The translations under genes were made by a program, and so were the position numbers. Below, in pieces: positions 10,401 through 64,000 of a stretch of 64,000 nucleotides of DNA. Within the stretch, counting starts at the first letter, position 1, and each line of letters opens with the position of its first letter. The stretch lies in the IMG/VR virus record IMGVR_UViG_3300009678_000058, one strand, 5' to 3'. Below the pieces are notes generated by a model. That model was not told where the DNA came from. It saw only the letters and a program-made list of their open reading frames with translations, and did no database searches. The stretch is from a virus.

Positions 10401-13400
10401 CTGCTGGGCTATAGATATCAATACCCATCTCTGTCCTGATAGTATCTACTACAGCCTGATGCTTGTCAGACTTCTTAGGATTACTTCTATGGGCATATAT
10501 ATAAATAGCCCTCAGTACAGAAGCTCTTGCATCCTTATCCAGTTTATCCCTGAAGGTTGGGAATCCCATATAGGTCTTCTTGCCATCACTGTTGGTTCCA
10601 TATCTTCTTACATCTATAATTGCCCCCTTCCTGAAGTGCTCAATGTTCATAAGTACATCAGTATCATTAGGGAACCTGACACCTAATTCTCCTCTTGCAG
10701 TATTAAGACTGGTTGCTGTCATAGCTATGGTCAGCTCAGTGTCAGGATTAGCTTCACGAAGAGTGATATTATTATATTCAGTACCCTTGTTGGTCTTTAG
10801 TCCTTCAAAGGTGGTTTGACGTTTTTCAGTGATCTCAATAGGAGTTGCTGCTCTCCTGTCAGCCAGCACAGCTTCCCTGATCTGTCTTGTATGAGCAATG
10901 GCATTAGCCATAGCCTGAGAAGAATCCTGATCAAACCTTTCAGGATGATACCAGCCAACATCATGTACAAAGGCAAGACCCTTCTGGCCTGAGAGACTTT
11001 TACCCTTATCATAAATGATCATAGGAATCTTGTCAAGGTACTCAGGTGAATCAGGAGTAATGTGAGGATTCTGTGCCAAGTACTGCCCAAAGGTGATAGC
11101 AGTTCCTTTAGTGCCATCTGGATTAAACATAGGAACTTTAATCTCAAGGTGATTAGCAGGAATCATGATCTCCATTGCAGTACCTGCCACATACCTGTCA
11201 GGGTCTAGCAATTGCAGGCTGTCAACATACTCTCCTACATTCAATTCATCAGCAGTATATTCAAAGGAAATCTCTATTCCCTCATCAGTCTGTGTCCTGA
11301 CAACAGTGGCAAACTTTGTAAGGAAAGCAAACTTGGGTGAAGACTCATTAGTAACATAAACTCTCTTACCCACTTTATCTTTATAGAAATACTTGGGTTG
11401 ACTATTAGGATCAAATTGAGTTTGCCCATTAGCTTTAGCCTCCACTGGTGCAATAGTGACATCAGTAGCATCACTTAATTTCTTGTTGGTATTAATCATT
11501 CCCCTTCCACTCTCCACAAAGTCATTCATAGGATCACCAAATATCTTGGTATAGATAGAAGCATAATCCTGTGGGGGCATATTGTTCTTCTCCCAACCAT
11601 AGACAGCAGCATTAAAAAGTTCATCAGCCACACCAATCCCCTGAACCTTTGCAATGTGTCTTATCAAATCTTCAAAGTTAGGCTCACCACCAAGTCTTGC
11701 TATCAGTCCTGCAACACTGGTAACTACTTTATCCTTTGTCTCCTGTGGTGAACCTTCAATATCAAGAGGCTCAGGGGCAAAGCTGGTAGAAGCTTCAGGA
11801 GACATGGAACCTAAATCCAGTTTAGTCCCTCCTGTATCTTCAGGATCACCAGTAGTCTTCTTACCCTTCATGCCATTGATGTAGTCATTGTCTGCACTGA
11901 ACATATCAAAGTTACTTGATACAGAAGAAGCATTCTGTTGTGCTACAACAGCCTGAGCAGCTTCAGCAGCAGCTATCTCACTCTCCTTCTTATTAGCAGC
12001 TTCCGTCTCCTCTGCTGTAGCACCCCCAGGTTTATTAGCTGCCGCATCCTTGGTATTCTGTACCTGTGCTCTTGTCCTAGCCTTATTAATTGATTCTTTA
12101 TTTCTTTGATCAAGGTATTTGGGATTATTCCACAAAGCAATATTTTTCCTCTGAAGTGCTATGGCATTCTCAAGATGAACGTTATCCTTATTTAATCTCT
12201 GGTAAGCAGGACTTGTAAGTGCTGACCTGATAATGTCACTGTCTTTCTCTTTTTCTTCAGCAGCATAAGTATCATCGGTTGCAATTTCCTGTAGCCTGTC
12301 ATTGATTTTAGTAAGTTTAAGTTCATTACTCTTGATCAGGGCATTTATATTATCTCTCTCCATCTGGTTCTCTGTAGCCCTGTGCTGTTCTGTGAGTCTT
12401 GCTCTTTCAAGATGAAGACTGAGTAAATCATACTCAGCTTCATATTGCTCCCTTCCATAACTTGATAACAGGTCATATTGTGTGAGTTTGGTTTTTGCTC
12501 CTGCCAGTTTAAGGTCATGCTGTGATTTCTCCTGTAATAATTTATTAAGCTGGAAGTGATCTGAAGTGACTTCAGGAACAAAGTTCTTATTGTATTTATC
12601 TTTAACTGAATCATAGATGGCTTTTAGTTCATGAGCATCATCAATACTATCCTGAAAGTTCTTCTTCACATATTCAATCTGCTCTGGTGTAGGACTTTCA
12701 AAACCTACATCCTGCAAGGCTTCAGCTTTTCCATTGGTCACATCATCCAGAGTTCCCTGCAGGTATGCTATGTGAGCATTAAAGGCAGTATCCTTATCTG
12801 TCATAGCATCATAGTGAATACCTCCCAGTGCTTTCTTATTCCTGAATTGCCTGCGAACTATATCAGCTTCCTTATGCTTGCCTTGTTGCTGCAATAGCAT
12901 TATCTCCATTCCTATTGCACTATCCATCTTGCCTACATTCTTTACATAGTCATTATGAAGTTCATTAAGCATCCTTGTTCTGCCTCCATCAATGGCCTTG
13001 TTAGTCAGCTTCATAAATCCTCCAATGATAGGAGAACCAATTACACCACCAGCAAAGTTGTTCCAGAATTCATCCTCTCCTACTGCTCCTCCCACTCTGC
13101 CAAGGAAAGTGGTAGCATCATCCATACCCCCCAGTACTCTTGCATAGTGCTTACCTTCACTGGAGGCTATATATTGCAGTCCCTCTTCAGTACCTTCTGT
13201 TAAACCTGTTACACCAAACTGGGTTGCTCCTCTTAAATATTTATTACCAATCTTAGCCAGTCCTCTTTCAATCAACCCTGTACTTGAACCACTGATAGGA
13301 TTAAATACCATTGTCCTGTAGCCAAGGATATCCAAGGGAAGAAGAGCCATGTTACCCATGTAAGTCCTGTCAGCACCAGCATTGGCATATTCTTCTACCT

Positions 13401-14187
13401 CCTGTGCAGTGTACTTGGCACTACCATCAGGATTCTTCATAGCTGTCATCTCATCAGTGATCTCCTTGTGAGACATCATAGCTTCCATCCTTGATTCATT
13501 GGTTCTGCTGAGAACACCATAAGTAGTGGCAGCACTCCTTAAATCCTTGACCCTGCTTGCCATCTTTGCTGCTGCTGCTACACCTTCAGTATCCCTGACC
13601 CTTTTAAACAGGCTTGCCAGCTTTCCTAAAGCTGCTCCTGTTCCCAGTCCCATTGTAGCTCCTTCTATAGCTGCTGTCTGAAGTAAAGCAAATGCACCCA
13701 TACCCAAGCCTGTACCTGCTGAAGCTGTCTGCTCCATAAGCCAAGCAAAGGAACCGGGTTCAAATTCTCCGGGATTAACTCTCTTGATTTCATTATTGCG
13801 GGCTACACCCATAGCCCATTCATGCATATCCTCAGTGGATATTCCAAACAGTTTACTCTGGTAGTTATCATTACCCCATGAAGCTACATCAACCATGTTA
13901 GCTACACCCTGACCAAAACCTGAAGCAAAGTTTGCTCCAAGTTGTGTAAGACCCCTGCCTAACTGTTCCATCTTACCCTGTTGCTGGGCATCCATTGTCC
14001 TTAGTGTCTTTGGATCATCATACACAGAAGGATTAACAAGATTGGGATAGTCTTCAGGATCAAACCTGCCCAGATTTCTTGAAGTCTCCTTTGCAGTGAC
14101 ATTTCCAAAAGTATTAGGAACACTGTCAGCACCACCTAAAAAATCTTTTGCCTGTAAAGGCTCCTTGCCATAGGTTTTTGTTGTCAT
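1477..14187 (-). CDS. Giant virion-packaged RNA polymerase polyprotein (crAss-like two-barrel RNAP), with N-terminal hydrophobic cargo region and C-terminal zincin-like domain
   Basis: 4236 aa. Catalytic-type motif GLDFDVDK (nt 4921-4935), preceded by SFRIPTSGHQS. HEVVH zincin motif near the C-terminus. Gly/Ala-rich hydrophobic stretches near the N-terminus. Syntenic with crAss-like RNAP/cargo genes. Confidence 0.9.
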   Translation of the reverse strand: MTTKTYGKEPLQAKDFLGGADSVPNTFGNVTAKETSRNLGRFDPEDYPNLVNPSVYDDPKTLRTMDAQQQGKMEQLGRGLTQLGANFASGFGQGVANMVDVASWGNDNYQSKLFGISTEDMHEWAMGVARNNEIKRVNPGEFEPGSFAWLMEQTASAGTGLGMGAFALLQTAAIEGATMGLGTGAALGKLASLFKRVRDTEGVAAAAKMASRVKDLRSAATTYGVLSRTNESRMEAMMSHKEITDEMTAMKNPDGSAKYTAQEVEEYANAGADRTYMGNMALLPLDILGYRTMVFNPISGSSTGLIERGLAKIGNKYLRGATQFGVTGLTEGTEEGLQYIASSEGKHYARVLGGMDDATTFLGRVGGAVGEDEFWNNFAGGVIGSPIIGGFMKLTNKAIDGGRTRMLNELHNDYVKNVGKMDSAIGMEIMLLQQQGKHKEADIVRRQFRNKKALGGIHYDAMTDKDTAFNAHIAYLQGTLDDVTNGKAEALQDVGFESPTPEQIEYVKKNFQDSIDDAHELKAIYDSVKDKYNKNFVPEVTSDHFQLNKLLQEKSQHDLKLAGAKTKLTQYDLLSSYGREQYEAEYDLLSLHLERARLTEQHRATENQMERDNINALIKSNELKLTKINDRLQEIATDDTYAAEEKEKDSDIIRSALTSPAYQRLNKDNVHLENAIALQRKNIALWNNPKYLDQRNKESINKARTRAQVQNTKDAAANKPGGATAEETEAANKKESEIAAAEAAQAVVAQQNASSVSSNFDMFSADNDYINGMKGKKTTGDPEDTGGTKLDLGSMSPEASTSFAPEPLDIEGSPQETKDKVVTSVAGLIARLGGEPNFEDLIRHIAKVQGIGVADELFNAAVYGWEKNNMPPQDYASIYTKIFGDPMNDFVESGRGMINTNKKLSDATDVTIAPVEAKANGQTQFDPNSQPKYFYKDKVGKRVYVTNESSPKFAFLTKFATVVRTQTDEGIEISFEYTADELNVGEYVDSLQLLDPDRYVAGTAMEIMIPANHLEIKVPMFNPDGTKGTAITFGQYLAQNPHITPDSPEYLDKIPMIIYDKGKSLSGQKGLAFVHDVGWYHPERFDQDSSQAMANAIAHTRQIREAVLADRRAATPIEITEKRQTTFEGLKTNKGTEYNNITLREANPDTELTIAMTATSLNTARGELGVRFPNDTDVLMNIEHFRKGAIIDVRRYGTNSDGKKTYMGFPTFRDKLDKDARASVLRAIYIYAHRSNPKKSDKHQAVVDTIRTEMGIDIYSPAGIEAYLNHFMLIFNSKTKAGVNQTYGEVVEGAARANLAPGTPFVALQGGHIIFGRTGQNSFTNAKGKGVGSQYINPNVTDPKIIDKVVEDFAKSGILDYFEQNVDLPNLNANKPIITIGAEYTTNKTSPSYKDYLLDRIKTNVRSHNIGTAAEPNYVTNIQPVITFDLVSNLDKQRHAPTNDEMAKKMEEEREVETPKKGTVVEEEEEVTPPGEPKLEGPSAEEMAEKAMAEWLARAEKGLGKEFNEGEKLPDLAPQASYAPTPMTEAQIEYVKESLLRIAGLTPDQQFDIVDFIYNQIVAMVDLDSVAVSRTMVDGEVKAAFDKTIAPIETHHKEEVRIAKELIAKFPQFANSKMTSNIATYEKRLAQIEAVRESFDVLQEEAYNRVAKYTGITEDKVTNEKENDQQSSEENPETNSTEEEVLFGGDFSTNVLTESPEQKLTYSMRRFFGQINEYDKDGKIMKGFLGLDTYVGSDEVVRRLMTALADTPADFDTMIAKLKTHVKTVPWMAEVIRRLESTTNQKKSQFVTAMDNSSLRMKFVMITENKMTGTWTTKVYDTNLSGVADAIEKEWRGNLTENGKDIVMVDDVTGHYVFNKERAKYLIKQYESWLGIGLTKIPLDMSGYRPTVDQVKPAVAATDKAAGRPAKTMNIKPIGELLAWLNQNLTGQTTRVQFSMKGQDFQVTRVSDNEFKIASIDKQDIKSNESVDKWLRELGIELHPDTLSEILTSGMYHNYGKRSTADLFTSGNGLFHILHLKLKLLVEKEGVHDFTEEGDNLLDDSVIGSLAVVDAKYNTSISPFAFRDAGKSIFALTARKSITDTVMELKDPDNHALLKNLMSTSYSSPSLWLQCLKSSPKFRTLFKVSHIGLTAFKQQGKKLYKDTGITKLADTDHELDKLGFFCDMTQGEVELQADDSKAVLNKYPGTDIAMRMATMFSPTMSDKEVMTLITTAVLHFQNADLNNGDGGITDEVVKVIYEQVVKPELKRMIKHAELNHKTNVKSYDAGAKMFLNMPALNDKIRLNGDRLVDLIYNQPADFNLQFLEQNEEVKKGFNNEIRSYVESLVKEKLKVWETDGITKTDADGKVSLQFFDKKYMDKFRGDNRQRATMAAMDYVINSLVANSNSFMAIIGDPAQMYKVDDTTTRAKFKTDLEYDVQVAKDVFTNVGKRLANQIAPGTGLANSAKEQYLQLMLADRKGVVAENIEYLEKILGKEGAAAYRDIEAADGQEYTTWKEHLDILSRLGKNGDGLMDITQEQLNEAAEIFEKGEPITPTQQQLITKIMQPMKPVYTGRMHDEKQDMMRVVYIKCSSFPLIPQLTKGMEIDKLRIKMEQIQKSNKMNVRASYQSANKVGALTTPLALWNEDGTITEHLNDHADIPAGMESSPVLILDRKNFRIQQDVPFKSGKQGEDTISLGTQLMKLLFGDEIMNFNGFSYNGEPRTGTSLHKEYNDLFLNLVKEKKAQLFDELGLDEFGIPKNANRSMAKLQDLLKNEAIKRGYPLQDIEGLTLIDGEFNLPLWASSNSNRYESMLNAIITNRIIKMKFPGVSSVVGSEEGFIRKKLEMTGNYTWARYQDNSYEVSSAGDKRFSALYAKLNDGRTIEEAYQLDVKGYRTQGDNWRLGKGKKPLRDITEQQQWEEYKQLWKTYLNENPELLKDLAQKAKDKTLTDKFASSKVSQARALAEILNEEYPSNIQGVDTSQIIYTSAWNGTHLTSTVDEGGTMKKAQVFMASKFKGADGNLIDLFKKVDGKYIYIEQKAGGGFTLKQDMFDKELLSMLSFRIPTSGHQSASQIEIAGFLPAQSADLMIVPKNFTKQKGLDFDVDKENSYQFWTHTTKEGKLEMLQEKHRRELLFDADREMKKADLAELRKEYEEAEGPNAKKHVMDKVRTKIRETHLLNTLFEAAAYDEQDFEENKYLRRLNSKINEKLMQNELIKINHAVFNNPDPKLQAKIARVLNTKFAEKQAMKIEELTNLDRDSTYWTPLSDEYQKAKLISGASGKIATGAFSLDVVFHSMAQQARISGKPITLIEVIDDPTSEKEGAKKKIPKTWRFGTVTSDPELGGFATRDKGRDIAEVVTEAQQIAVDNEKLQVMGRVGLNDMTLDVFKMFMLTGIDKGADGDSIPFLFLSQPIIRDFVLEMKNINSIMAEFSEDKEQAVIDKLIAKYDPEKTWENVDPLKYEEVTSDLMNNDNFRTGIRALKPDALIQRAVLNRFLDMRKYGIAVRGIQTSINTDSKGLGKSFFDVIDKREKLNKLGVDTDTIQGASALIGDYIRKAGLPASRLQELQKLGYMDIGQYMVLPETLSGGFSINGVTLAYNLWSRFFPYDTKNMEEVFKEILGVTTTEKGLELSNVEKKQHIFQNVKKFLAAEQGNGLTNDEVNAERARLYIDTDTNRSLATYIKGLKNTIGDKTIDEYIKTNKLLNRFEFDGIQKNGMPSLVKYNNADGEEFDEQYLYDSMSMMLTERNPDGSKIQLPSFNGKEYTLDELAQDMILAAYLGNAVQEAIQYTKYVPVAYLNAMGYSLAMRKNNDRFHYDSTLLGLKMKKDDGTDKHFVSRFTMQYIQHYPERVQAKYDAKKLAAAALMHPDGTFTFIDGRKPTFVSVYDTTVMKGDKKFKLYWLDGTTGRYVRIPILGAFGMDEYQPAVDMGVSSINTRMAFRPKPAPIIEEENPDTVTNNFDIKTGGDVTKMVTNISKSTTPFALLAKELIPFVDGIKVVTMDSIMIGEESHATALGVYEATGNTIYIKESILSNADKLADTFMHEVVHGVTVRQLMPYIDGLDTANPQVKTSDAPAYVSNLIMLYNRVKNSMPKGEVERIAAAMANKQKITQAEIDQFYGMINLKEFITMAMTNKKFQAHLSNIPMGGENQSALSKFKQIINAILTAMGVDIKPGSVAEAAFNNIFELIEAENIRDGFDPYQAQYGDMNDTTEGGYFNENDLWPTGDNLSPSASESVSAYIASLSNQEKIC

Positions 14188-52693: not shown

Positions 52694-53857
52694 TTAGGTC
52701 TTTACAACCAAAACATCAATATCCTGCCACGCTACTCCATTCCAGAATTTCATCTTAGCTGGTGGACTGGAGTAATCCTGAAGATTCATGGCTTCAAGCA
52801 AAACAATAGTGTATGAACCTGTACCTGATTGGGTAGTGGTTAAGGCGAGGGCTTCATTAATGGAAGCAATGATAGCAGACTGGGAGGATATCAGATCTGA
52901 GAGTGTAAGAGCTTCAATGATAGTACTGAGAAATGACATAGAAGAAGAAGGACTATCACTAAGAGTAAGAGCTTCTGCAAGAGGAGCTAAGTAAGTCATC
53001 CTGCTGGTTTGCTGAGTAGCAAGGGTCATAGTCTCAGCTATCACCATCAGGTAAGCAGAAGAAGAGAGATAGCTATCATTGAGAGTCAGAGGTTCAGTGA
53101 TATTGACTAAGTAAACATTAGTGGAAATGATAGTATCAGTGAGACCCATCAGCTCTGATATAATGGCTGAGAATGCTCCTGAAGCTGATGGAGCATCTGA
53201 TAGGGAGAGAGCTTCATTGATAGCTCTGTTACTAATGAGAGAACTGAAGGGAGCATCTGCCAGAGCAAGTGCTTCTGTAATTGAGGCTGAAGTGATAAGA
53301 GATGAGCTGAGAAGATCAGCCAGAGTCATGGTCTCATCTATTATGGCAGGTACACTTCCAGTGAGTCCAACTATTTCATCAATGAGGGCCATAGCCTCAA
53401 GAACAGATGAAGACATTACCTGTGTAGGAGTAATAGCATCAGTCAGGGAGAGAGCTTCAGTAATTGAAACAGTGGCAATAGTGATGGTAACAGAAGGAGT
53501 ATCACTAAGAGCCATAGCTTCACTAACAGATACAGTGACAAAAATGATAGTGGCAGAAGGAGAATCAGCAAGAGACAGAACTTCAGACACAGATACATTA
53601 TATGTACTGCCACCAACAGGGGCAGCAGGAGCATCAGTAAGCGCAATGGTTTCTGTAATGACATTGGTAATGATAGTGATGGTGACTGAAGAGATATCAG
53701 TAAGAGCTAATGCTTCAGTGATAGTGAGAGTAGCAATGATAATAGTAGTGGAAGGAGAATCACTGAGGGCAAGAGCTTCAGTAATGGCTTCATTATAAGT
53801 AGTGCCACCAGCAACAGGAGGAATATTACCGAAGAATATCTTGAAGGTTGCTGGCAT
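52694..53857 (-). CDS. Repeat-rich fibre/appendage protein (~17 E-x-[LMI]-x-L-x-D repeats)
   Basis: 387 aa with ~21-aa periodic TEALALSDSPS-type repeats; ends in KMKFWNGVAWQD. Confidence 0.65.
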   Translation of the reverse strand: MPATFKIFFGNIPPVAGGTTYNEAITEALALSDSPSTTIIIATLTITEALALTDISSVTITIITNVITETIALTDAPAAPVGGSTYNVSVSEVLSLADSPSATIIFVTVSVSEAMALSDTPSVTITIATVSITEALSLTDAITPTQVMSSSVLEAMALIDEIVGLTGSVPAIIDETMTLADLLSSSLITSASITEALALADAPFSSLISNRAINEALSLSDAPSASGAFSAIISELMGLTDTIISTNVYLVNITEPLTLNDSYLSSSAYLMVIAETMTLATQQTSRMTYLAPLAEALTLSDSPSSSMSFLSTIIEALTLSDLISSQSAIIASINEALALTTTQSGTGSYTIVLLEAMNLQDYSSPPAKMKFWNGVAWQDIDVLVVKT

Positions 53858-53863
53858 TTATGA

Positions 53864-54178
53864 TTATGTTGTAGTAGGAATGCTAAGAACAAAATCAGCC
53901 CATTCTTTGGGAGAGGTCTGGTCTATAGCTACCACTGTAATTACATCACCATTCATTTCAGAGGCAGATAAGGTGAGCAGGACTAATATGGAAGCTGCAG
54001 GTGATACTGTAGGCAGGGTAGCAAGATCAGTAAGAGCACCACCATCTATAGAGACCTTGAAATCACCAGCAGCAATAGTAGGACTGGATTTAAAGTCTCC
54101 TGCACTAGCATAGTCTTCCAGCGAAATCCTGATCAGGAAATCTTCATTCTTTTTTGGTGGATTATAAGGGGCCGCCAT
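53864..54178 (-). CDS. Small virion structural protein (putative)
   Basis: 104 aa, beta-rich (DFKVSIDGGALTDLATLP...LTLSASEMNGD), within the appendage cassette. Confidence 0.45.
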   Translation of the reverse strand: MAAPYNPPKKNEDFLIRISLEDYASAGDFKSSPTIAAGDFKVSIDGGALTDLATLPTVSPAASILVLLTLSASEMNGDVITVVAIDQTSPKEWADFVLSIPTTT

Positions 54179-54199
54179 AGTAAGTGGAGGGGGGTTTAA

Positions 54200-55387
54200 T
54201 TAAATTCCTAATTGCAATCTTGCTCTTGGTTTAGTTATGTCCACTGATATCCTGTATTCATCAGCATTTGCATCTATTGAAAGTATGATGGGATTAGGCT
54301 TAATGTACAATCTTGGAACAGTATATATCCCTGTAAGGTTATATTGCTGGTTTGTCATAAGAGTCTCAGCTCCCCAGGTTGTTCCTGCATCTGTTGAAAT
54401 CTTATAATACATATTCATTGATGTAGGCCATGTCTCAGAGCCATCAGATTTACCAGCATAGAAGACATACCAGTAGTTAGTGACAAGGTCAAGGGTGATA
54501 GCACATAATCCCTGATCATCCACTGAGTTGTTGACAACATTAGTGAGGGCAGTGATAGCTGTTTCAGTAATTATCCATGCCTGTAAGTCAGCATTGAGAG
54601 TATCAACCCCATTCCATGCTGTTAGAATAATACGGGAATTGGTAAGGTCTGGTACTGCTGAAAAGTTAGAGAAGGCTATGGATGCAGGACTATCAGCCAT
54701 TGAAGCAGAAATTAAAGTTTCAGCCCAAGTGTTAGCTGAGTCATCATAAAGCTGTCTGCTAACTTCATTAGTCGAGATATCCCAGAATATGCCGATAATG
54801 TCATTGTTATCAGTGGCAAAACCCGGCATAAGAATCATCATATCTGTGGTTGCAGCAGCTTCATTGATTGTTCTGGTATCCCATACACCATTTGGGACAT
54901 TGGCATTAGTAAGCCTGAAGAAACCTCCTTCAGTGCCATTATCTATTTGAGTCCTGCAATATACATTTCCTCCCCTGCTACGGGTAATGCTCATGAAGCT
55001 TCCTGCCAGTACTGCTGAAGCTCCTGCAAAGATAACAGTAGAAGTAGTTGAGAGAGTATCTGAAGAGTCAGTGTCTATAGTGCGATAAAGACAATCATGC
55101 CCTACTGTTTCCACGAAAGAACAATGAATAAGACCAGAGGACAGTCCTGACCACTTATCATACCAGACAGACAGGTTAAAAGCTGTACCTGTATAAACAA
55201 CTGTACCCACTGACCATGTAAATCCTCCATCCAGTGACTTTTTAAAGCTTATATCCGCAGCAGCATCAATGTAGACATAGTACAGTACACCAGTAGGAGT
55301 CTGGATAAGATAATAAGTGCATGCTCCCTGATTTCTTCCGGTAGCTGCTCCATTCTGTGATATAACCATCTCTAATCTTCTGGGCAT
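54200..55387 (-). CDS. BNR/Asp-box (sialidase-like) beta-propeller protein
   Basis: 395 aa. Asp-box motifs KKSLDGGFTW and KISTDAGTTW, plus YDDSANTW. Confidence 0.6.
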   Translation of the reverse strand: MPRRLEMVISQNGAATGRNQGACTYYLIQTPTGVLYYVYIDAAADISFKKSLDGGFTWSVGTVVYTGTAFNLSVWYDKWSGLSSGLIHCSFVETVGHDCLYRTIDTDSSDTLSTTSTVIFAGASAVLAGSFMSITRSRGGNVYCRTQIDNGTEGGFFRLTNANVPNGVWDTRTINEAAATTDMMILMPGFATDNNDIIGIFWDISTNEVSRQLYDDSANTWAETLISASMADSPASIAFSNFSAVPDLTNSRIILTAWNGVDTLNADLQAWIITETAITALTNVVNNSVDDQGLCAITLDLVTNYWYVFYAGKSDGSETWPTSMNMYYKISTDAGTTWGAETLMTNQQYNLTGIYTVPRLYIKPNPIILSIDANADEYRISVDITKPRARLQLGI

Positions 55388-55404
55388 GGCAGGAGGAGGG
55401 GGGT

Positions 55405-55992
55405 TTAAGCTGAAACTGTATAGGCTACATTAAGAGTATCTGTGTTCACCACTGGCCTGTCACCACCAGTAAAGAGACCAGAACTGAAGAGAACTCCAGC
55501 AGTGTTGTCAATGGTAGAGACTGCACCTGTTCCAAGGACAATAAAAGCTCCTTTTACAGTGCCGGCACCAGTAATGGCAAAAGACAGGGCTGCAGTTGTG
55601 GTTTTTGAGCCTGCTGAGGCTGCATTAAAGACTACAGTTTTGCGTGGGGCTGTGTAAGTTGGGGCATTAGCCAGTCCAGCTTCAGTCCAACCAGCATGTG
55701 AAGCCATTGTATCACCTGCAACTATAGCAGAATAGCCAACTGAGGAGACCAAACCCATGAAAGGGCCTGTTACAGTGTATGCTGCACCTGCCATGATTGT
55801 ATCAAGGGTGAGATTCTTTCCAACATTGACAACGAGGTTATCAATAGTGTCCTCCCATTTGAGATTTCCATGACAATCAAAGCACTGGAAGTGATATTTT
55901 CCCTTAAGATCAAGGTGATCAATGGGGAGAGTGGGAGATTTGATGGTATTAGCGTTGAAGCTGTCATTGATATTAAGTTTTTCTGAGTTCAT
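55405..55992 (-). CDS. Virion structural / fibre-associated protein
   Basis: 195 aa. WEDTIDNLVVNVGKN and TVKGAFIV...GVLFS...DTLNVAYTV pattern of phage tail-associated proteins. Confidence 0.55.
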   Translation of the reverse strand: MNSEKLNINDSFNANTIKSPTLPIDHLDLKGKYHFQCFDCHGNLKWEDTIDNLVVNVGKNLTLDTIMAGAAYTVTGPFMGLVSSVGYSAIVAGDTMASHAGWTEAGLANAPTYTAPRKTVVFNAASAGSKTTTAALSFAITGAGTVKGAFIVLGTGAVSTIDNTAGVLFSSGLFTGGDRPVVNTDTLNVAYTVSA

Positions 55993-56082
55993 GAGAGATT
56001 ATTTAAGTATTAGTAGATGAGTGGTAATTGTAACTAAGCCACTTCAGGGTAAACCTGAGTAGGGGTGAGGAGGAGGTGAGAC

Positions 56083-56334
56083 TTAAGAGGTATCAATCCA
56101 GATATCTCCGGGTTCAGGGCTGGAGGGAGGAGAGGAAGACATGGTAATTTTCTTAACTCCGTCACCTAAGATGTAGTAAAGAGGGCTGGCTGCTGCCTGA
56201 ATGTTATCATTGGTCAAGGGAGGGGTGAGGTTAGAGCCTATGATCTGGTTGGAGTCAGGATTTTTGATGAACTGATCCCACATCCTGTAGACCATTGTAT
56301 TAATCGTGTTCCAATTTCTGAAATCATCAGGCAT
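56083..56334 (-). CDS. Small fibre-like protein (likely start MPDD at 56334)
   Basis: 83 aa; ends in SPPSSPEPGDIWIDTS, the first half of a common fibre motif. Confidence 0.55.
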   Translation of the reverse strand: MPDDFRNWNTINTMVYRMWDQFIKNPDSNQIIGSNLTPPLTNDNIQAAASPLYYILGDGVKKITMSSSPPSSPEPGDIWIDTS

Positions 56335-56872
56335 AGTAGATGAAATAAGGTTAAAGATAGTCAAAAAGGAAACCCCCTGTAGAAACAGAGGGTGAACCAA
56401 TTTTAAAAAAAACATATACTACGAAAAATGAAAACTTTATCACCAACCAGATGATAAGAGAGACAAAGGTAAGGTCAATGAGACACTTAAAATTTTTTTT
56501 GGTATTAAGATGAGTATAAAAAAATTTTAGAGTAGGAGTGTGAAGGTGATCCACCCTACACGAGCAGCCCCCATTAATCCTTGGACAAAGACTCCCCCGC
56601 CATCATAGGCAGAGGCACTTTTCCGTGGCTGCTAATATATCATGAGTGTTCCTGTGGCTACACACACCTAGTGTAGTGATAGCTCATGACAGGTAGGGTG
56701 CAGAACATCCTACCAGCACCCACTAATCTTAGATCAATCATTCATCACTGTGTGGTACAGACTGAACAGTTGTACAATGTATGTACATCTTAACTGTATA
56801 CACACAATACCCTATCAGCCCCCATTAATTCTTGGTATTACATATTTCCTTCACAATTTAAATGTCATTATT

Positions 56873-57154
56873 ATGAACATTTCTCAGATCAAACTCGCTA
56901 TTGGTATCCCAGTTCTTAACATTTCACGTCAGGTTGATGAGCAGAATCTGCCTCAACCTTGGGTGTCTCATTGGGACGATACCAATAGGGTCAGGGTCAC
57001 CATGCATGATGATGTGTATAACATCATTGTGGCTGACAAGTCCTTCGATAAGCTGGCTTACAAAACATCTACGGTTACTCCTACAGATGCTAGTAAGCTG
57101 CCTTACACCAGGATTGTGATCATCACGCCTAAGGAACTTTTGGGTACACTCTAA
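56873..57154 (+). CDS. Hypothetical early protein (start MNISQ)
   Basis: 93 aa; A/T-rich leader; followed by a terminator. Confidence 0.65.
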   Translation: MNISQIKLAIGIPVLNISRQVDEQNLPQPWVSHWDDTNRVRVTMHDDVYNIIVADKSFDKLAYKTSTVTPTDASKLPYTRIVIITPKELLGTL

Positions 57155-57167
57155 GAGTGGCCCTTCA

Positions 57168-57198
57168 CGAAGGGGGGAATTTCTCCCCTTCGTTTTTT
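57168..57198 (+). terminator. Rho-independent terminator
   Basis: CGAAGGGG...CCCCTTCG stem followed by TTTTTT. Confidence 0.8.
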
Positions 57199-57552
57199 AA
57201 TCTTTTCTGCTTCTGGTTTCATATCCGAGCAACCCCCACTAATTCTTGGCTGCAACAGCAGTCCTTTTTTTTAAATTAGTTTGATGGTGAAAGGTTGAAG
57301 CACATGAACAATGTAGCAGATACACCTGTACCTGTCAAGCTATTTTTTTAAATTAGTCATAGATAGAACCAGACCATTTAGTTGGTGCAGTCCCTATCAG
57401 GCTACAGTTTACTGTAGTAACAAGTATCTTGGTAAAACTCAGACAGCAATGATTTGAGGCAATGCAGTTTACTGTCCTTATGGGATGAGTAGGCTATCAA
57501 GATACTTTCACTTTTAATTTCACCATTCTTTAATTCTATAAATTAGTCTTTT

Positions 57553-57873
57553 ATGCAATTACAATTTCTTCCTATGTCAAGCTGGACTCCTGAGATGTAT
57601 GCCTTCTCTGATTACCTGTCTACTCTAGATGCATTTAGCACTCCTGTTATTCCTGCTACTCTTGAACATTATCCATTCATTGTAAGATGGGAAGAGTGTG
57701 ATTGCAGGAATGGAGAGTGGGTAGTGACATTCTTCATGCCTATCACAGCAGCAGGTCATACCCAACTGATTTCAGATAAGCTGAAGAATCTCACTGAGCA
57801 GGTCATCAAGGCAGTTGGTAAGAGGAATAGGAATACTCCTCCTACTCCTTGGGATGAATTCCTTGGGAAATGA
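57553..57873 (+). CDS. Hypothetical early protein
   Basis: 106-aa ORF with an A/T-rich leader. Confidence 0.55.
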   Translation: MQLQFLPMSSWTPEMYAFSDYLSTLDAFSTPVIPATLEHYPFIVRWEECDCRNGEWVVTFFMPITAAGHTQLISDKLKNLTEQVIKAVGKRNRNTPPTPWDEFLGK

Positions 57874-58539
57874 GTTAAGAATGGTACACCTATAAGAGGT
57901 GTATCCTTCTTTTTTTATTGCCTTCATAGAAAAGGGAGATAGGTTATTGTGAATAAATATATTTGGAAATGTCAGAAAAATACCATAACTTACAGTCATT
58001 CACCCTCTCCCTCACCACTTATACCCTCTCCCCACCACACAACAAATCATCTTCCTAATCATCTTCCCCTATTCTATATAAAAAAAGGGGGTGCAGGGGG
58101 GAAATCGTTTTCCGCAAAGTTAATAGATTGATAATCAAAGGATTAATGAAAAAAGTTGCACCGTATTTTTACTATTTTGGCATGGAAAAATACGGTAAAA
58201 AGTGAGTATTTGTACTTGATGGCTTACAAATGTTAGTAAGTAGGAGAGAGAGTGGAGGTCAAGAAGATTAGAGAGACTGGAGTTATTGTTAATGAAATGT
58301 TAAAGTATATTGGGTAGGAATAAGGTTAAATTGGGTATATAATTCCATACCCTAACAACCCCCACTAATCTCCGATGCCATTACCAGAATGCTATGTTAA
58401 TGCTAACTATTAGGTTAAACTCGGAGCACTTTGAGGCTTAAAAGCATAGCTAACTTGCTCAGTACCTGGTGATTAGTTATTTGTGCATCTAAAAAACATG
58501 CAAATCTTGCCTTAACTATAATTTTAATAGCCTTTAATT

Positions 58540-58680
58540 ATGAAAGATGGACTCTATCAGGTAACTAATACCTATCTGTGTGCAGGATTTGTTATCCAAA
58601 ATGGTATTATCACCCATTGTGCACCTATACTACGCAGAAAGATTGGCTATTGGATGACAGTTGCCAAGTTTATCTCATAG
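58540..58680 (+). CDS. Small hypothetical protein (below cutoff)
   Basis: Hand translation gives 46 aa, MKDGLYQVTNTYLCAGFVIQNGIITHCAPILRRKIGYWMTVAKFIS. Confidence 0.5.
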   Translation: MKDGLYQVTNTYLCAGFVIQNGIITHCAPILRRKIGYWMTVAKFIS

Positions 58681-58708
58681 TTTCTCAATCACCTATAATT
58701 TTAATCAA

Positions 58709-58948
58709 ATGACAAAGCTAAAACAGCTCTATTCCAGCAACACACTCAATCCTGTCCTCTATCACATCACAAACTGGGTAAATTCCCATCATGATGAGAC
58801 TCAGGAACCCATTCTTTCTGATTACATTGACTATGAAGAGATGATTGTCAAACCAGCTCATTATCTAATGAAGTTCAATGAGGAAGACTGGCAGTGGGAA
58901 GTCCTATTTTTTGATACCTATGAAACTATTGAAGAATTACCATTTTAA
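58709..58948 (+). CDS. Hypothetical acidic protein (start MTKLK)
   Basis: 79 aa; TTTTAATCAA leader before the ATG. Confidence 0.55.
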   Translation: MTKLKQLYSSNTLNPVLYHITNWVNSHHDETQEPILSDYIDYEEMIVKPAHYLMKFNEEDWQWEVLFFDTYETIEELPF

Positions 58949-58975
58949 TCATACTCTAAACCCAACTCATTACTC

Positions 58976-59380
58976 ATGAAAAAGACATCTAAATCATCAA
59001 ACCCAGAAGCAAGCTATACAATTCATACTATCTTGTTCTGCTTAGCTTTAGCAGTACTCATCTCCTTAGTTTCCTGTGATTCTAAATCTGGTCACATGAA
59101 ACCTAAAGCCAAATTAAGGATTGCAGCATTTGCTCAACCTCCAACTGGCCACATCTGCAAAGATCTAAATCACATCAAATGTGATGGTGAATGTACATGT
59201 GATGGAATGGAGTGTCCAAGCCCTATGCCACAGATTGTCATCAAGCAGATCAATGTAACTCCTGGTGGTTATATCTCTTGCAGATACATTTCTACAGATG
59301 GAGAAGAATATGCTTATGATCACATGACATCAGAGCAATTTCACAATATCTTTGGTTTCTTAGTCTCTACAGAGGAATAA
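58976..59380 (+). CDS. Putative lipoprotein
   Basis: 134 aa. Hydrophobic segment ending in lipobox-like LVSC, then a Cys-rich segment. Confidence 0.6.
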   Translation: MKKTSKSSNPEASYTIHTILFCLALAVLISLVSCDSKSGHMKPKAKLRIAAFAQPPTGHICKDLNHIKCDGECTCDGMECPSPMPQIVIKQINVTPGGYISCRYISTDGEEYAYDHMTSEQFHNIFGFLVSTEE

Positions 59381-59901
59381 AATATTAAAATACTGCTGTG
59401 GTACACACACTTAAGTGCACAAGGTGTAGTGAATAATCCTACTGTCACTGGATGACAGCATTAGAAACACCCTAAAAAAGGCAGGGGCCATGCAGTATTT
59501 TAAACTTCTTTAAACATAGTGTCCAAATCCCAAAAGAAGGTGGTGAGAGAAACATGATAAGAAGTAATCATGGAGTATCAAAAACTGGACTGTAATCCTG
59601 AGTAGAATTAAAATAAATTCCAAAAGGAGAAAAAGTGGGAGAACCAGCACTATATTTAATTTCATTTCATTTAAGAACAAAACCGAGGGATAAAATAAAG
59701 CAGTCTTGTTGTATGATTGCTGGAAAATAAACCCTCCATTCAGGTAAGTGGGCCAATACTGCCTGAGTGTACATACAACTTTCACCTGTGGGGTGGCCCT
59801 CATGGGATACAGCAATAAGACAGGAGTTCTGGTGTAATAAAGCACCGTAGCCTGTCTTTCTTTTTAAATTATTGCTCTGACAAAACAGGGCATCCTTGTT
59901 T

Positions 59902-60078
59902 ATGACCATTTACCGTTATTACTGGGAAGAGACTCATTCATGTGTCATCCATCCCTTAACAAGCTGGCATACCACCAAAGAAGGTGCTTATGCAGACCTG
60001 CTTAAAGGCCATCCTGAGGCCACTGACCCTGATGAGTGGGAGATGAATCTTGAGCAAGCCACTCTTATTCAGGATTGA
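59902..60078 (+). CDS. Small hypothetical protein
   Basis: 58 aa from the first ATG. Confidence 0.5.
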   Translation: MTIYRYYWEETHSCVIHPLTSWHTTKEGAYADLLKGHPEATDPDEWEMNLEQATLIQD

Positions 60079-60445
60079 TTTTTCAAGGTGCTATAAAGTG
60101 CTATATGTTCAGAGTTGACAGCAATGCAACACTAATACATGGATCAGCAGCCTTGTTTTCATTTTCATTTTCATTAATTTGATTATAACCCATAAGGGTT
60201 CATATATTAATAAACCAAAAGGGCTGAATGTAAGGAACTGGAAGATATACCCAGTACCGGAATATAGGCTCTTATTCAATGGCAGGCAGTGAGTGTCCTT
60301 GGACAGACACTACTGGTGTAACCATTGGATTATTTAATAACAATCTTATAGTATCCAAGTACTATTGTATATCAAAAGCCCTGCATTCAGGCCACAGGCC
60401 AGGAGAGTGCAGGCTATATTTTTAAATCACCAAAACACCAGATAT

Positions 60446-60673
60446 ATGGAGCATCAAATCAGTTATGATATGCTATTTCCAACAGTCAACACACTCAACA
60501 ATGATTTTCCTGATGTTGATATTCAGAGAAGATTAGTAAATGAAGAAGTGTGCTATTTCATGATCATACCTGACCAGTACACATCACAGCAATTAATAAT
60601 GCTGGGAATGCTGTTGGGTAAGGCTTACATGAAATTATGGACTATTGAGCAAATTCAGGAACTCCCTTGCTGA
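60446..60673 (+). CDS. Hypothetical protein (start MEHQI)
   Basis: 75 aa; TTTAAATCA leader. Confidence 0.55.
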   Translation: MEHQISYDMLFPTVNTLNNDFPDVDIQRRLVNEEVCYFMIIPDQYTSQQLIMLGMLLGKAYMKLWTIEQIQELPC

Positions 60674-60820
60674 TATAAACTAGCGCAACTTGTAGGTAGT
60701 AGGGATAAACCTTCACATAGCTCCGGCATTATCTCCAGTAATACTTATAACTAAGTATGAAAAAGGATAATGTCCGGGGTTACTTTTATTATTTAAATCA
60801 TCAATCAAATCAAAGTACAA

Positions 60821-61216
60821 ATGAAAAAGTTAAGTATGGTTGCAGGATTCCTAATCCTGTTTGTAATAGTCAGCAGGGCACAGGAACCCAAAGTCATCTA
60901 CACTAAACATGTAACCATTGGTTACTGGAGTGAGGTGACAAATCAATATGAATATGATAATCGCGAAGAAGAAAGGATGAAGATTATTATGGAACCCGGA
61001 AGGCTTTATATTCTAAATGAAGCCCAGTCCTCATTCAGGTATATCAAAAAACTTGAGCTGCCAAAAAGCAAGACTGAACAGGTCAATGAGTATGTATGCA
61101 GGGATAAAGATGGAAAATCCTGCCAAGTAAGGCTTGTTCTTGATTACACTGATAAAAGTTTTTGGATTTTTGTCAAGTATGATAACTACGCAGTATGCTA
61201 TGAAATGGAAGATTAA
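60821..61216 (+). CDS. Secreted protein (Sec signal peptide)
   Basis: MKKLSMVAGFLILFVIVSRA|QEPK, an SPI-like cleavage typical of Bacteroidota; beta-rich mature part. Confidence 0.65.
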   Translation: MKKLSMVAGFLILFVIVSRAQEPKVIYTKHVTIGYWSEVTNQYEYDNREEERMKIIMEPGRLYILNEAQSSFRYIKKLELPKSKTEQVNEYVCRDKDGKSCQVRLVLDYTDKSFWIFVKYDNYAVCYEMED

Positions 61217-61256
61217 CTACTAATAAAAATTAAATAATTATTAATCCCTACCTACC

Positions 61257-61595
61257 ATGACCACACACAGATTCAAGGTGTTCCACCCAAGAGGTGGACA
61301 CCTCAACTACCAGTGCAAACCCAATTTCTATGAGTATGAAGAGATTTGTGAAATTGATGTCCCTGATCTCCATGATGTATTCAGAATGACCCAGAATGAT
61401 TTAAATCCCACCTATGCATTAGGTGGACACAGATCAACTTCTGTTGGAGATATCATTGTGGACATCAGTGATGGAGATACTTACCTCATTGAGGGCTTTG
61501 GCTTCAGGCAAATTGATCAGAGCTGGTTAATGTTCAGGAAGAACTCTTACATTACATACTCTTATTTAAAAATCTTTGGCAAACATGGAATTTAA
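61257..61595 (+). CDS. YodL-like domain protein
   Basis: VFRMTQN...GHRSTSVGDIIV...YLIEGFGF matches the YodL-like F..N.....RS.SVGD.V....Y.....GF pattern. Confidence 0.65.
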   Translation: MTTHRFKVFHPRGGHLNYQCKPNFYEYEEICEIDVPDLHDVFRMTQNDLNPTYALGGHRSTSVGDIIVDISDGDTYLIEGFGFRQIDQSWLMFRKNSYITYSYLKIFGKHGI

Positions 61596-61923
61596 ATTAT
61601 TTCCCACCGTCCCAAATACCCAGCTTACTCTACAAAAAAAGAGTGAGCTGGATCAGTATTTGAAGCAGCTAATCAATACCATCATTCATGACCTGAGAGC
61701 AAGAGGTGGTAACACCACTGACATGATTGATTTACTGGATTTGGCTCATTTTAAAATGACTCATCATTCCTTTTACAGAAGCCTGATTACAGAGGAGATT
61801 AATGATAAGCATTATACAGTGACAGTCATTGGAAGATTAACTGCTTATGTGGATATGTTTCATTTCTTTATGACACATGATCTTCCTCCAGTAAGGACTA
61901 AACCCAGACCTAAAATTTATTAA
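61576..61923 (+). CDS. Hypothetical protein
   Basis: 115-aa ORF overlapping the previous gene. Confidence 0.55.
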   Translation: MANMEFKLFPTVPNTQLTLQKKSELDQYLKQLINTIIHDLRARGGNTTDMIDLLDLAHFKMTHHSFYRSLITEEINDKHYTVTVIGRLTAYVDMFHFFMTHDLPPVRTKPRPKIY

Positions 61924-61932
61924 AATAAACTC

Positions 61933-62181
61933 ATGATCCGTAAACTCCCGCTTTTACTTGCTATACTATTAATTAGTATAGCCAGCTTTGCCAAAGACCC
62001 ATGCAAAGGCACAACAACTAAAGGTCAGCCCTGTAAATCAACCATGACATTAGCAGATGGATTTTGCAAACATCATTCACCACTAACTCCCAGATGTGGT
62101 GTAATGACTTCAAAGAAGATCCCCTGTAAAATGACAGTAAAAGTTGCCGGTGATAAATGCCAGCATCATGCCCCGAAATAA
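61933..62181 (+). CDS. Secreted small protein with two C-x3-T-x2-[G/K]-x2-CK...C-x2-H repeats (DUF5763-like)
   Basis: Signal peptide MIRKLPLLLAILLISIASFA, then CKGTTTKGQPCK...FCKHH and CGVMTSKKIPCK...KCQHH. Confidence 0.6.
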   Translation: MIRKLPLLLAILLISIASFAKDPCKGTTTKGQPCKSTMTLADGFCKHHSPLTPRCGVMTSKKIPCKMTVKVAGDKCQHHAPK

Positions 62182-62335
62182 TTCAACTTATTAGGTATAA
62201 TCTTACCATAGCATCCAAGAAGGCTTAAACCCTTGCAATGTGAGTCTTCCCCTGCAAGGATGAGAATTGCAAGTCTCATCCTATGGTGGACTTGGATTAT
62301 ACCTATTTTTTTTTAATCAATCAATTTTTAAGTTA

Positions 62336-62752
62336 ATGAAAAAGTTATTAATCTGCCTATTTGTATTAGGCACTATCACTATGAGCTGCAACAAAGGCAA
62401 TAATTCCACTGACCAGAATGTTTTATCAAAAGATGTTGTGGGAACTTACAAGCAATTTGTTTACAGAGTTGGCTCTAATTCATTTATCACTACTGTCACA
62501 GCTAATGCAGATGGTACACTCAGGATGAGATTTAAGGATTGCTGCAACCCGGAATATATTTTTACCAAGATAAAGCTGGCACCAGATTTAACCTTCACCC
62601 TGAATGAGGTCTTTGCAAGAAAGAATTACAATGGTTCAGCAGGAACTCCAAACCAGTGGGTAGGAAAGGGTTATTTTGGCCACAATACCATCTATCTTGA
62701 TTTCAAGTGTACAACCTGTTATGACAGGCTTCTAATTGATGGTGTCAAATAA
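62336..62752 (+). CDS. Lipoprotein (start MKKLL)
   Basis: MKKLLICLFVLGTITMS|C lipobox, then a beta-rich domain. Confidence 0.7.
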   Translation: MKKLLICLFVLGTITMSCNKGNNSTDQNVLSKDVVGTYKQFVYRVGSNSFITTVTANADGTLRMRFKDCCNPEYIFTKIKLAPDLTFTLNEVFARKNYNGSAGTPNQWVGKGYFGHNTIYLDFKCTTCYDRLLIDGVK

Positions 62753-63104
62753 AAGTATTTTTTAAATCAATTCAATAATTAATCATGTCATCACATTTTG
62801 ATACATCAATAGAAGACCTTGATCTCAGTGTCAGGTGTTACAATATACTAAGACACCATCTTAAGATCAACATATTAGGTGATCTTACCAAACTCACTGA
62901 AAAGGAGGTTATGCAGCATAGGCACATGGGATTTAAATCACTTGAAGAAATAAGAACACTAATGTCTGAAGCAGGATTATCCTTCAAAGAAATTCCACCT
63001 GTAGATAAAATAGGCCAATTGATATCCTCTGGATACATCACCATTGATGAACTCAGAGACTATCTAAACCGCAATACAAGTATTCTTTAAATCAATTCAA
63101 TAAT
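62753..63104 (+). repeat. 27-nt direct repeat at 62753-62779 and 63078-63104 (one mismatch)
   Basis: AAGTATT[T/C]TTTAAATCAATTCAATAAT precedes two consecutive start codons. Confidence 0.7.
62785..63090 (+). CDS. Stand-alone RNA polymerase alpha subunit C-terminal domain (alpha-CTD) homologue
   Basis: SIEDLDLSVRCYNIL...INILGDL...RHMGFKSLEEIRTLMSEAGLSF follows the RNA_pol_A_CTD consensus; no alpha-NTD. Confidence 0.85.
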   Translation: MSSHFDTSIEDLDLSVRCYNILRHHLKINILGDLTKLTEKEVMQHRHMGFKSLEEIRTLMSEAGLSFKEIPPVDKIGQLISSGYITIDELRDYLNRNTSIL

Positions 63105-63121
63105 CAATCAATTTTAATTTT

Positions 63122-63520
63122 ATGCAATCAGTTAAAAAGCCTGCACAAGCAAAAGCATCTGTTATGTCACCAGAGACATTAGCATCAATCAAGAAACAAA
63201 TTCGTAAATTTCACAGGGTATATGAGAAACTCTCAGGATACTGGAATGGCCCATACAAGGTGTTCCCTCATATTGTTGCCAGTTCTGTCCTGTTACAGAA
63301 TGCCAGCTTTGATGGATCATTCAACAGTGACTACTCTCATGAGAATGAAGTACACACCCTTTATCAAATCCTTGACCTGCTGACCACTATGAGAGATTAT
63401 CATGGCAATGAAGACTACATGATCACTTATGCCCATAATGAACTCAGTGACATTATCAATTATGCAGAGATGGCAGATATTTGTGCAGATGAACCAAAAG
63501 ATTTAGTAGGAATACTATAA
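63122..63520 (+). CDS. Hypothetical protein
   Basis: 132-aa ORF after the repeated leader. Confidence 0.6.
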   Translation: MQSVKKPAQAKASVMSPETLASIKKQIRKFHRVYEKLSGYWNGPYKVFPHIVASSVLLQNASFDGSFNSDYSHENEVHTLYQILDLLTTMRDYHGNEDYMITYAHNELSDIINYAEMADICADEPKDLVGIL

Positions 63521-63625
63521 AAAAGTTGGAGTGCCAACAATTAGAGTGTTTAGAAGAATAAGGAAGAGTATTTCTATACTCTTCCTATATTTAATCAGTC
63601 ATTCATTACTAAATCAATTAACATC

Positions 63626-63787
63626 ATGATCATGAAAACAATTCTCATCATATTGGCCATACTCTGTCTGTGCTTTGTTGACTCCTATATTATTATGGGA
63701 GGAATTGGTGTATTATTATTAGCAATGGTAGTAGTCCTTGATGCAATTAACACAAGACACAGAGAAGATAATAACAAAAAGCCTTAA
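63626..63787 (+). CDS. Small membrane protein (below cutoff)
   Basis: Hand translation gives 53 aa with two hydrophobic stretches and a charged tail (MIMKTILIILAILCLCF...REDNNKKP). Confidence 0.55.
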   Translation: MIMKTILIILAILCLCFVDSYIIMGGIGVLLLAMVVVLDAINTRHREDNNKKP

Positions 63788-63832
63788 ACTTACTTTACTG
63801 GCATAGTAAAGATTAAAATTGGTGATTTAAAT

Positions 63833-63862
63833 AAGCGGGATATCTCTATATCCTGCTTTTTT
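63833..63862 (+). terminator. Rho-independent terminator
   Basis: AAGCGGGATAT-CTCT-ATATCCTGCTT followed by a T-run. Confidence 0.75.
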
Positions 63863-64000
63863 CATTATTTTCTATCTTTATGCCTAAATTAACCAGCCAT
63901 GATGAAGCACATCTGCAAAAATTGCTGTATCAAATTTGACAGCTACAAGTTCAATAAATGTCCTGATTGCAATGAGCCTGTATTTCAAGAGTGGGGAGCA

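Follow-up and report, generated by a model that had tools for sequence, protein, structure and literature searches.

An environmental crAss-like phage was found to encode a free-standing copy of the C-terminal domain of the RNA polymerase alpha subunit (alpha-CTD). Residues 1-69 of the 101-aa protein are a genuine, structurally intact and divergent alpha-CTD, and its gene is a real, maintained accessory gene specific to this phage lineage. Judged by sequence comparison, the protein adds a new, minimal example to the recurrent, uncharacterised class of phage-borne free alpha-CTDs. As a tentative interpretation, the free domain may compete with the alpha-CTDs tethered to the host polymerase and so steer this enzyme off alpha-CTD-dependent host promoters. 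All positions refer to the window, the 64,000-nt stretch of DNA that was analysed, which is part of a 73.8-kb IMG/VR virus record (IMGVR_UViG_3300009678_000058) that is about 75% complete.

Structure and residues of the detached alpha-CTD

The gene runs from ATG to TAA over 101 codons (Table 1). The encoded protein matches the Pfam family PF03118 (RNA_pol_A_CTD) with 57.5 bits (E 1.1e-15; residues 3-61 on model positions 9-66/67), compared with a curated gathering cut-off of 23.8 bits, and a genome-level profile search returned the same PF03118 result for the gene. Among solved structures, the significant sequence matches (E <0.001) are RpoA alpha-CTDs only. The best of these is the Bacillus subtilis domain 1z3e_B (E 1.5e-10), with about 40% identity between the B. 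subtilis and phage domains. AlphaFold2 modelling from an alignment of 26 rows gave a mean pLDDT of 81 for the whole protein and values of 85-90 across the alpha-CTD domain. Foldseek superimposes the model on 1z3e_B with an rmsd of 1.0 Å over 65 columns (TM 0.90 by target), and an exhaustive VIA-align search with model residues 1-68 aligns 67/67 residues to the same structure at Z 13.2 and an rmsd of 1.2 Å. The model matches the four-helix, double helix-hairpin-helix (HhH) fold of solved alpha-CTDs, which is also common to RAD51, Y-family polymerase and other HhH DNA-binding modules according to VIA-align. The first-pass annotation, made from the letters and their open reading frames, had described the protein as an alpha-CTD plus a short helical tail and had named a HMMER search against RNA_pol_A_CTD as a check. 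That search is the one reported above, and the ORF, the Pfam match and the superposition all agree with the description, the tail being represented by two predicted helices.

Table 1 Features of the alpha-CTD locus and its direct neighbours (positions in the window)
Feature	Position	Strand	Basis or extent
Free-standing alpha-CTD protein, complete ORF, 101 aa + stop	62785..63090	+	ORF, Pfam, structure-sequence matches
Alpha-CTD domain proper, residues 1-69	62785..62991	+	Pfam, E. coli residue map, model superposition
C-terminal tail, residues 70-101, two predicted helices	62992..63087	+	AlphaFold2; without homologue or fold match
Upstream neighbour, ORFan with lipoprotein-type signal peptide, 32 nt away	62336..62752	+	ORF list, profile searches
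Downstream neighbour, 132-aa ORFan, 31 nt away	63122..63520	+	ORF list, profile searches
38-nt direct repeat, left copy	62748..62785	+	covers upstream gene end, A/T-rich leader and first base of ATG
38-nt direct repeat, right copy	63073..63110	+	covers last five codons and stop, and leader of next gene

The phage protein was aligned to residues 236-329 of E. coli K-12 RpoA. R17, N20, G49, K51 and S52 are identical to R265, N268, G296, K298 and S299, respectively, and three positions are altered, with H47 for N294, F50 for K297 and I21 for C269. The first-pass annotation had listed the same five residues as kept and had placed His at N294 and Phe at K297; since the alignment reproduces this list call by call, it is correct. 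Five of the six residues of the '265 determinant' (R265, N268, C269, G296, K298, S299) are identical in the phage protein, C269 being replaced by Ile; His stands at the peripheral N294 and Phe at K297. In an alignment of 26 alpha-CTDs, R17 and N20 never vary, and G49 and S52 are almost invariant. In the '261 determinant', D11 aligns with D259 and D13 with E261, the latter a conservative change; the D259/E261 acidic patch touches sigma region 4 in E. coli. Cellular RpoA and the phage protein share the fold, the DNA-contact equivalents and the acidic 259/261 positions. The phage protein differs from RpoA by C269I, N294H and K297F, by a one-residue loop insertion after helix 1 and by the extra two-helix tail.

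The start of the phage ORF coincides with the domain boundary, M1 lying about four residues ahead of E. coli F249. No match to PF01000 of the alpha N-terminal domain (alpha-NTD) was obtained anywhere in the 73.8-kb record, and a profile search of the record revealed no sigma region 4. As the protein has neither the linker nor an alpha-NTD (PF01193 / PF01000), it cannot be a polymerase subunit.

The tail helices are predicted at residues 73-81 and 87-98, with pLDDT values of about 64-78. The tail is acidic (pI 4.7) and the whole protein mildly acidic (pI 5.9). A VIA-align search of the model gave no structural match for residues 70-101. MAFFT sets the tail against repeat 2 of tandem alpha-CTD proteins, which suggests a degenerate second alpha-CTD repeat; Pfam/HMM searches recognised one repeat only, and no fold match covers the tail. 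A further candidate, an EF-hand, was rejected, as the Pfam matches are sub-threshold (E 0.07) and the calcium-loop residues are absent.

The phage, the gene neighbourhood and conservation of the locus

The record contains crAss-type major head, portal and large-terminase genes, and among cultured phages it is closest to the FpV4 group of Flavobacterium psychrophilum phages (capsid identity 64.5%). A 4236-aa ORF (1477-14187, minus strand) matches PHROG 16227 at 999 bits and contains a single DFDVD at residue 3085. The DFDVD region matches an FpV4 virion protein and, weakly by tblastn, a Bacteroides crAss-like 'RNAP catalytic subunit'. Its assignment as an RNA polymerase (RNAP) is based on the motif, the PHROG and this tblastn match; phmmer against PDB sequences gave no match for the giant ORF. 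The crAss-type capsid, portal and terminase genes of this IMG/VR virus record, together with the giant DFDVD virion protein, bear out the earlier statement that the alpha-CTD is phage-encoded, and the window is from an environmental crAss-like phage. Host contamination or a broken rpoA is excluded by the lack of an alpha-NTD, by phage DNA all round and by conservation in strain variants.

Residues ~2833-2955 of the giant ORF (window 5325-5700 region), which lie just upstream of the DFDVD region, match phrog_9995. This segment of ~120 aa shares about 50% identity with free-standing proteins of phiKZ-like jumbo and N4-like Achromobacter phages and, on this sequence likeness, looks like an inserted module in the giant virion protein.

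Up to about 56.4 kb, the minus strand encodes all structural and virion genes, and the alpha-CTD gene is located on the opposite arm. Two further observations concern the minus strand: a 387-aa ORF (52694-53857) consists mostly of diverged 63-nt (21-aa) repeats, and the C-rich leader TTAAACCCCCCTCC (minus-strand reading) occurs at 54176-54199 and 55385-55408, directly before two consecutive minus-strand genes. In L271, one of three strain-variant metagenome contigs (L271, L272 and L273), the strand of the alpha-CTD gene runs about 4.4 kb further downstream, into an SF1 helicase, and the arm is therefore regarded as the replication arm. In the crAss-like phage phi14:2, the early class comprises the whole replication arm, which is read by an injected virion RNAP resistant to rifampicin. 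For its middle and late genes this phage relies on host RNAP, which acts at extended, tripartite sigma-70-like promoters; no early-promoter motif was found in that study (10.1101/2020.03.07.982082). By analogy, and as inferred from the position of the gene, synthesis of the alpha-CTD protein would occur early, ahead of the need for host polymerase on phage DNA.

The alpha-CTD gene is surrounded by small ORFans with little space between them, and three of these have N-termini of the signal or lipoprotein type. PHROGs and Pfam searches of ten neighbouring ORFs yielded a weak DUF5763 match only. The signal-peptide/lipoprotein-type ORFs of the presumed early arm start at 60821, 61933 and 62336 (plus strand), and one of them carries the weak DUF5763 match; from their sequences, they could encode superinfection-exclusion or envelope-modifying proteins. 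No promoter-like (sigma-70-type) or terminator-like site lies between the alpha-CTD gene and either neighbour, and the upstream neighbour is probably co-transcribed with it. A scan for sigma-70-type promoters between 56 and 64 kb found 28 sites, compared with 30 in shuffles, and none is placed to drive the alpha-CTD gene. Rfam gave no match between 51 and 64 kb. The stretch 56000-64000 contains 20 terminator-like hairpins, about fourfold the 4.9 of shuffled sequence, e.g. at 57167-57193, 63561-63586 and 63833-63858 (plus strand).

A separate element of ~30 nt with the core CCCCCAYTAATYYTNG occurs in five same-strand copies (56568, 56717, 56819, 57233 and 58359, plus strand; spanning 56568-58374). 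The copies occupy extended non-coding stretches right where the presumed early arm begins. Five copies were reached in 0/100 shuffles. The element, which has no Rfam match, may be an early promoter for the virion RNAP or an ncRNA element. The leaders in the block of the alpha-CTD gene have a looser TTAAATCAATCAAT-like motif in common.

The two copies of the 38-nt direct repeat are 92% identical, are spaced 325 nt apart and bracket the alpha-CTD gene, which therefore looks like an exchangeable cassette. Comparison with G001, the closest complete relative (78% capsid identity), shows a syntenic structural arm. A block of ~14 kb (~51500-65570), which spans the strand switch and holds the alpha-CTD gene, has no tblastn homologues in G001, where the equivalent place is occupied by only ~4.6 kb. 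Conservation resumes at a 254-aa ORF just past the window (record C1:38-802). PF03118 is matched in none of 20 related crAss-like records (capsid identity 68-99%), nine of which are at least 90% complete, and the gene is therefore dispensable for the crAss-like transcription programme.

An identical protein is found on 68 contigs from three sources (JGI/IMG, Logan and ENA), one of these contigs being 101 kb long. Apart from the phage protein itself, none of 1.84 billion representative proteins exceeds 50% identity. Direct searches of viral contigs for relatives of the alpha-CTD protein and of both flanking genes gave no match, nor did an exact junction search in viral contigs, although near-identical records may lie outside the set covered by these searches. 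The alpha-CTD gene is kept in all three strain-variant contigs (91-99% identity), with 0, 0 and 2 nucleotide changes. Both changes are synonymous and the protein is identical, compared with 3-19 substitutions in the flanking genes. These few, exclusively synonymous changes argue against a decaying passenger, although the counts are small. The same three contigs lack the 115-aa ORF at 61576-61923, with about 40 nt instead of about 370 nt (61585-61955), and differ from the window in content from 56.5 to 61.2 kb, which indicates cassette turnover within the species.

Relatives and origin of the domain

The best database matches of the phage protein reuse the alpha-CTD domain in tandem arrays (up to 11 repeats) and in fusions to sigma region 4, TPR and RRM; outside RpoA, alpha-CTDs are also fused to zinc ribbons and unknown domains. 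When IMG/VR was scanned with a profile, 22 viral alpha-CTD loci were identified, none of which encodes a full RpoA. The viral architectures comprise a sigma-region-4-like helix-turn-helix (HTH) followed by an alpha-CTD, a zinc ribbon followed by an alpha-CTD, an alpha-CTD followed by an unknown C-terminal domain, and a transmembrane segment followed by an alpha-CTD. No counterpart of the phage tail is present among the 22 loci. The ESM Atlas holds several clusters of free alpha-CTD proteins of 90-110 aa, some of them half viral, and its cluster combining PF03118 and PF04545 is 50% viral.

Fusions of sigma region 4 and alpha-CTD are located on the IMG/VR contigs L243, L252, L254, L256, L259, L260, L263 and L264. 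Like the phage protein, the viral fusions are virus-encoded and detached from RpoA and keep the DNA-contact arginine. In contrast to them, the phage protein has no sigma-like HTH and carries its alpha-CTD at the N-terminus, followed by 32 residues only; there is no close sequence kinship between the two. Another relative is Goe8_c00050 of Bacillus phage vB_BmeM-Goe8 (QDP42789.1), a 210-aa protein annotated as 'RNA polymerase subunit alpha'. It also contains a single alpha-CTD (78 bits) without an alpha-NTD and is encoded among small hypothetical genes at the genome end. Unlike in the phage protein studied here, its alpha-CTD is C-terminal and follows a 140-aa unknown region. Goe8 belongs to the Herelleviridae, its host phylum differs, and the identity to the phage protein is about 41% over 56 residues.

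A PF03118 match is present in 149 of 151 Bacteroidota genomes gathered by a 16S probe scan. Their RpoA CTDs score 80-95 bits on this model, compared with 57 bits for the phage domain. When the phage domain was compared by phmmer with 35 Bacteroidota RpoA CTD loci (23 distinct sequences), scores of 26-41 bits were obtained; Flavobacterium reached 27-28 bits, equal to E. coli (27.9) and below B. subtilis (about 44). A maximum-likelihood tree calculated from 85 alpha-CTD segments places the phage domain on a long branch outside the Bacteroidota RpoA clade, which unites 20 of 21 Bacteroidota RpoA CTDs (support 86/80; 67 columns, with low resolution). The first-pass annotation had suggested a phylogeny versus Bacteroidota RpoA. 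The phage domain does not nest among these CTDs and gives no sign of recent capture; a recent capture from a Bacteroidota host is rejected on the low phmmer scores and the tree position. Among non-RpoA alpha-CTD proteins, no clear donor emerged; single-domain scores peaked at about 46 bits, which is no better than the score of B. subtilis RpoA.

A different case is provided by the IMG/VR contig L257, on which an ORF (2429-2746) encodes a protein of 106 aa that begins with a transmembrane segment and continues into an alpha-CTD. In contrast to the phage domain described above, this alpha-CTD nests within the Bacteroidota RpoA clade (support 96/96) and is, on its sequence, an apparent recent host-derived capture.

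Possible roles in infection

The proposed mechanism would begin early, when the injected virion RNA polymerase transcribes the alpha-CTD gene as part of the replication arm, as the position of the gene suggests. The free domain would then rival the alpha-CTDs tethered to host polymerase in binding A/T-rich UP-type DNA, partners such as activators and sigma region 4, or both. Such competition would damp alpha-CTD-dependent host promoters, e.g. those of rRNA and activator-dependent genes, and host polymerase would thereby be freed for the middle and late promoters of the phage. A free alpha-CTD binds DNA weakly, and competition would therefore need high expression or extra affinity. The tail may give a second contact, through dimerisation or a host partner, and so offset the weak affinity of the untethered domain.

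That the free alpha-CTD competes with the tethered ones in this way is plausible and is put forward with reserve. The intact fold, the retained DNA-contact and 259/261 residues and the lack of an alpha-NTD and of sigma region 4 in the record are consistent with it, as are the maintenance of the gene and its placement on the replication arm, the early class in phi14:2. On the other hand, three DNA-facing positions are changed (C269I, N294H, K297F), the protein is mildly acidic, the early timing is taken from analogy with a relative, and none of the 20 related phages has the gene. The more specific version, in which a tail-augmented, detached copy of the domain that docks host polymerase to promoters and activators serves as an early takeover factor ('subunit-domain mimicry'), outcompetes the tethered alpha-CTDs at UP elements, activators or sigma region 4, shuts down the host transcription that depends on them and hands host polymerase to the middle and late phage promoters, is somewhat unlikely on present sequence evidence.

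There is precedent for the end that competition would serve. T4 Alt and ModA ADP-ribosylate R265 of the alpha-CTD, Rac of the phiKMV type cleaves alpha by proteolysis, and gp67 of phage G1 binds sigma. Their effect would be the one proposed here for the free domain, namely the early loss of alpha-CTD-dependent host transcription, although their proteins and mechanisms are unrelated to the phage alpha-CTD protein. Phage attack on the alpha-CTD/UP axis is described for T4 Alt/ModA (PMC2988021), G1 gp67 (PMC3694059) and phiKMV Rac (PMC7552054). In addition, a takeover role has been proposed for a cystovirus fusion of sigma-CTD and alpha-CTD (Neri et al. 2022, 10.1101/2022.02.15.480533).

The first-pass annotation had proposed that the protein titrates UP elements or host activators or serves phage transcription. 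The intact DNA-contact residues, the position on the arm that is early in phi14:2 and the dependence of crAss-like relatives on host RNAP for middle and late genes are compatible with this proposal, but these features do not tell a decoy from a positive co-factor or a generic HhH DNA binder. As a generic HhH DNA-binding accessory protein, it would be a minor-groove module for replication start, recombination or genome compaction/protection that has no link to RNAP. Alpha-CTD domains are widely reused outside RpoA, their fold is common to RAD51, Y-family polymerase and other HhH modules, the gene is on the replication arm, and the conserved residues are the DNA-contact ones. However, the acidic 259/261 patch and the overall likeness to RpoA CTDs are kept as well, the neighbours are ORFans, some with signal peptides, and not replication genes, and no DNA target can be named for such a protein. 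A role of this kind is considered unlikely.

The retained equivalents of D259/E261, the sigma region 4 contact in E. coli, would also suit a positive co-factor that binds upstream of phage promoters and contacts sigma region 4 or the virion RNAP, as an activator module supplied in trans for middle/late or early promoters. The extended, tripartite sigma-70-like promoters at which host RNAP transcribes phi14:2's middle and late genes fit this role, and the fusions of alpha-CTD to a sigma region-4-like HTH, present on many phage contigs, suggest joint action on promoter DNA. Yet the host RNAP already carries two alpha-CTDs, the virion RNAP of crAss phages has neither an alpha homologue nor a known docking site, the gene is missing from nine near-complete relatives, and a non-systematic look upstream of the minus-strand genes revealed no matching motif. 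A co-factor is quite improbable.

The protein could, with very low probability, act as a protective or anti-defence decoy that soaks up an alpha-CTD-targeting factor and shields the host polymerase that is needed later. The absorbed factor would be, for example, a host abortive-infection effector, the ADP-ribosyltransferase of a rival phage or a host regulator that senses infection via the alpha-CTD. To our knowledge, no defence system targets the alpha-CTD; none was found in our searches either, and the idea is derived purely from location. It draws on the placement of the gene where the early arm begins, within a block that is hypervariable and cassette-like, a typical place of counter-defence genes, and on the retention of the target arginine, R265 being a known target of phage enzymes (T4 review, PMC2988021).

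Least probable is a passenger without function, in which a domain fragment acquired by illegitimate recombination decays between the repeats. The flanking 38-nt direct repeats, the absence from all related phages examined and the divergence of the domain (57 bits vs 80-95 for cellular RpoA CTDs) would fit, but the reading frame is uninterrupted, the fold prediction is confident, the key residues are retained, and the protein, identical in 68 contigs and in three diverged variants with synonymous changes only, is less variable than its neighbours.

The means by which phages are known to act on the alpha-CTD/UP axis are chemical modification, cleavage and sigma-bound blockers; free copies of the domain are, as far as we found, unstudied. 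Literature searches (phage-encoded free alpha-CTD; PF03118) returned no functional study of a free phage alpha-CTD, and no description of host-takeover mimicry by a free alpha-CTD copy was found. With its domain and 32 further residues, the phage protein is the minimal form of the class. As it is encoded in a phage group with a partly understood transcription programme, it offers a clean test case for distinguishing a competitor, an activator and a plain DNA binder. If the protein is not a mimic, its gene is one more orphan accessory gene. If it is one, it would represent a new class of host-takeover factor and would provide a reading for a large set of unstudied alpha-CTD proteins, including those of phages.
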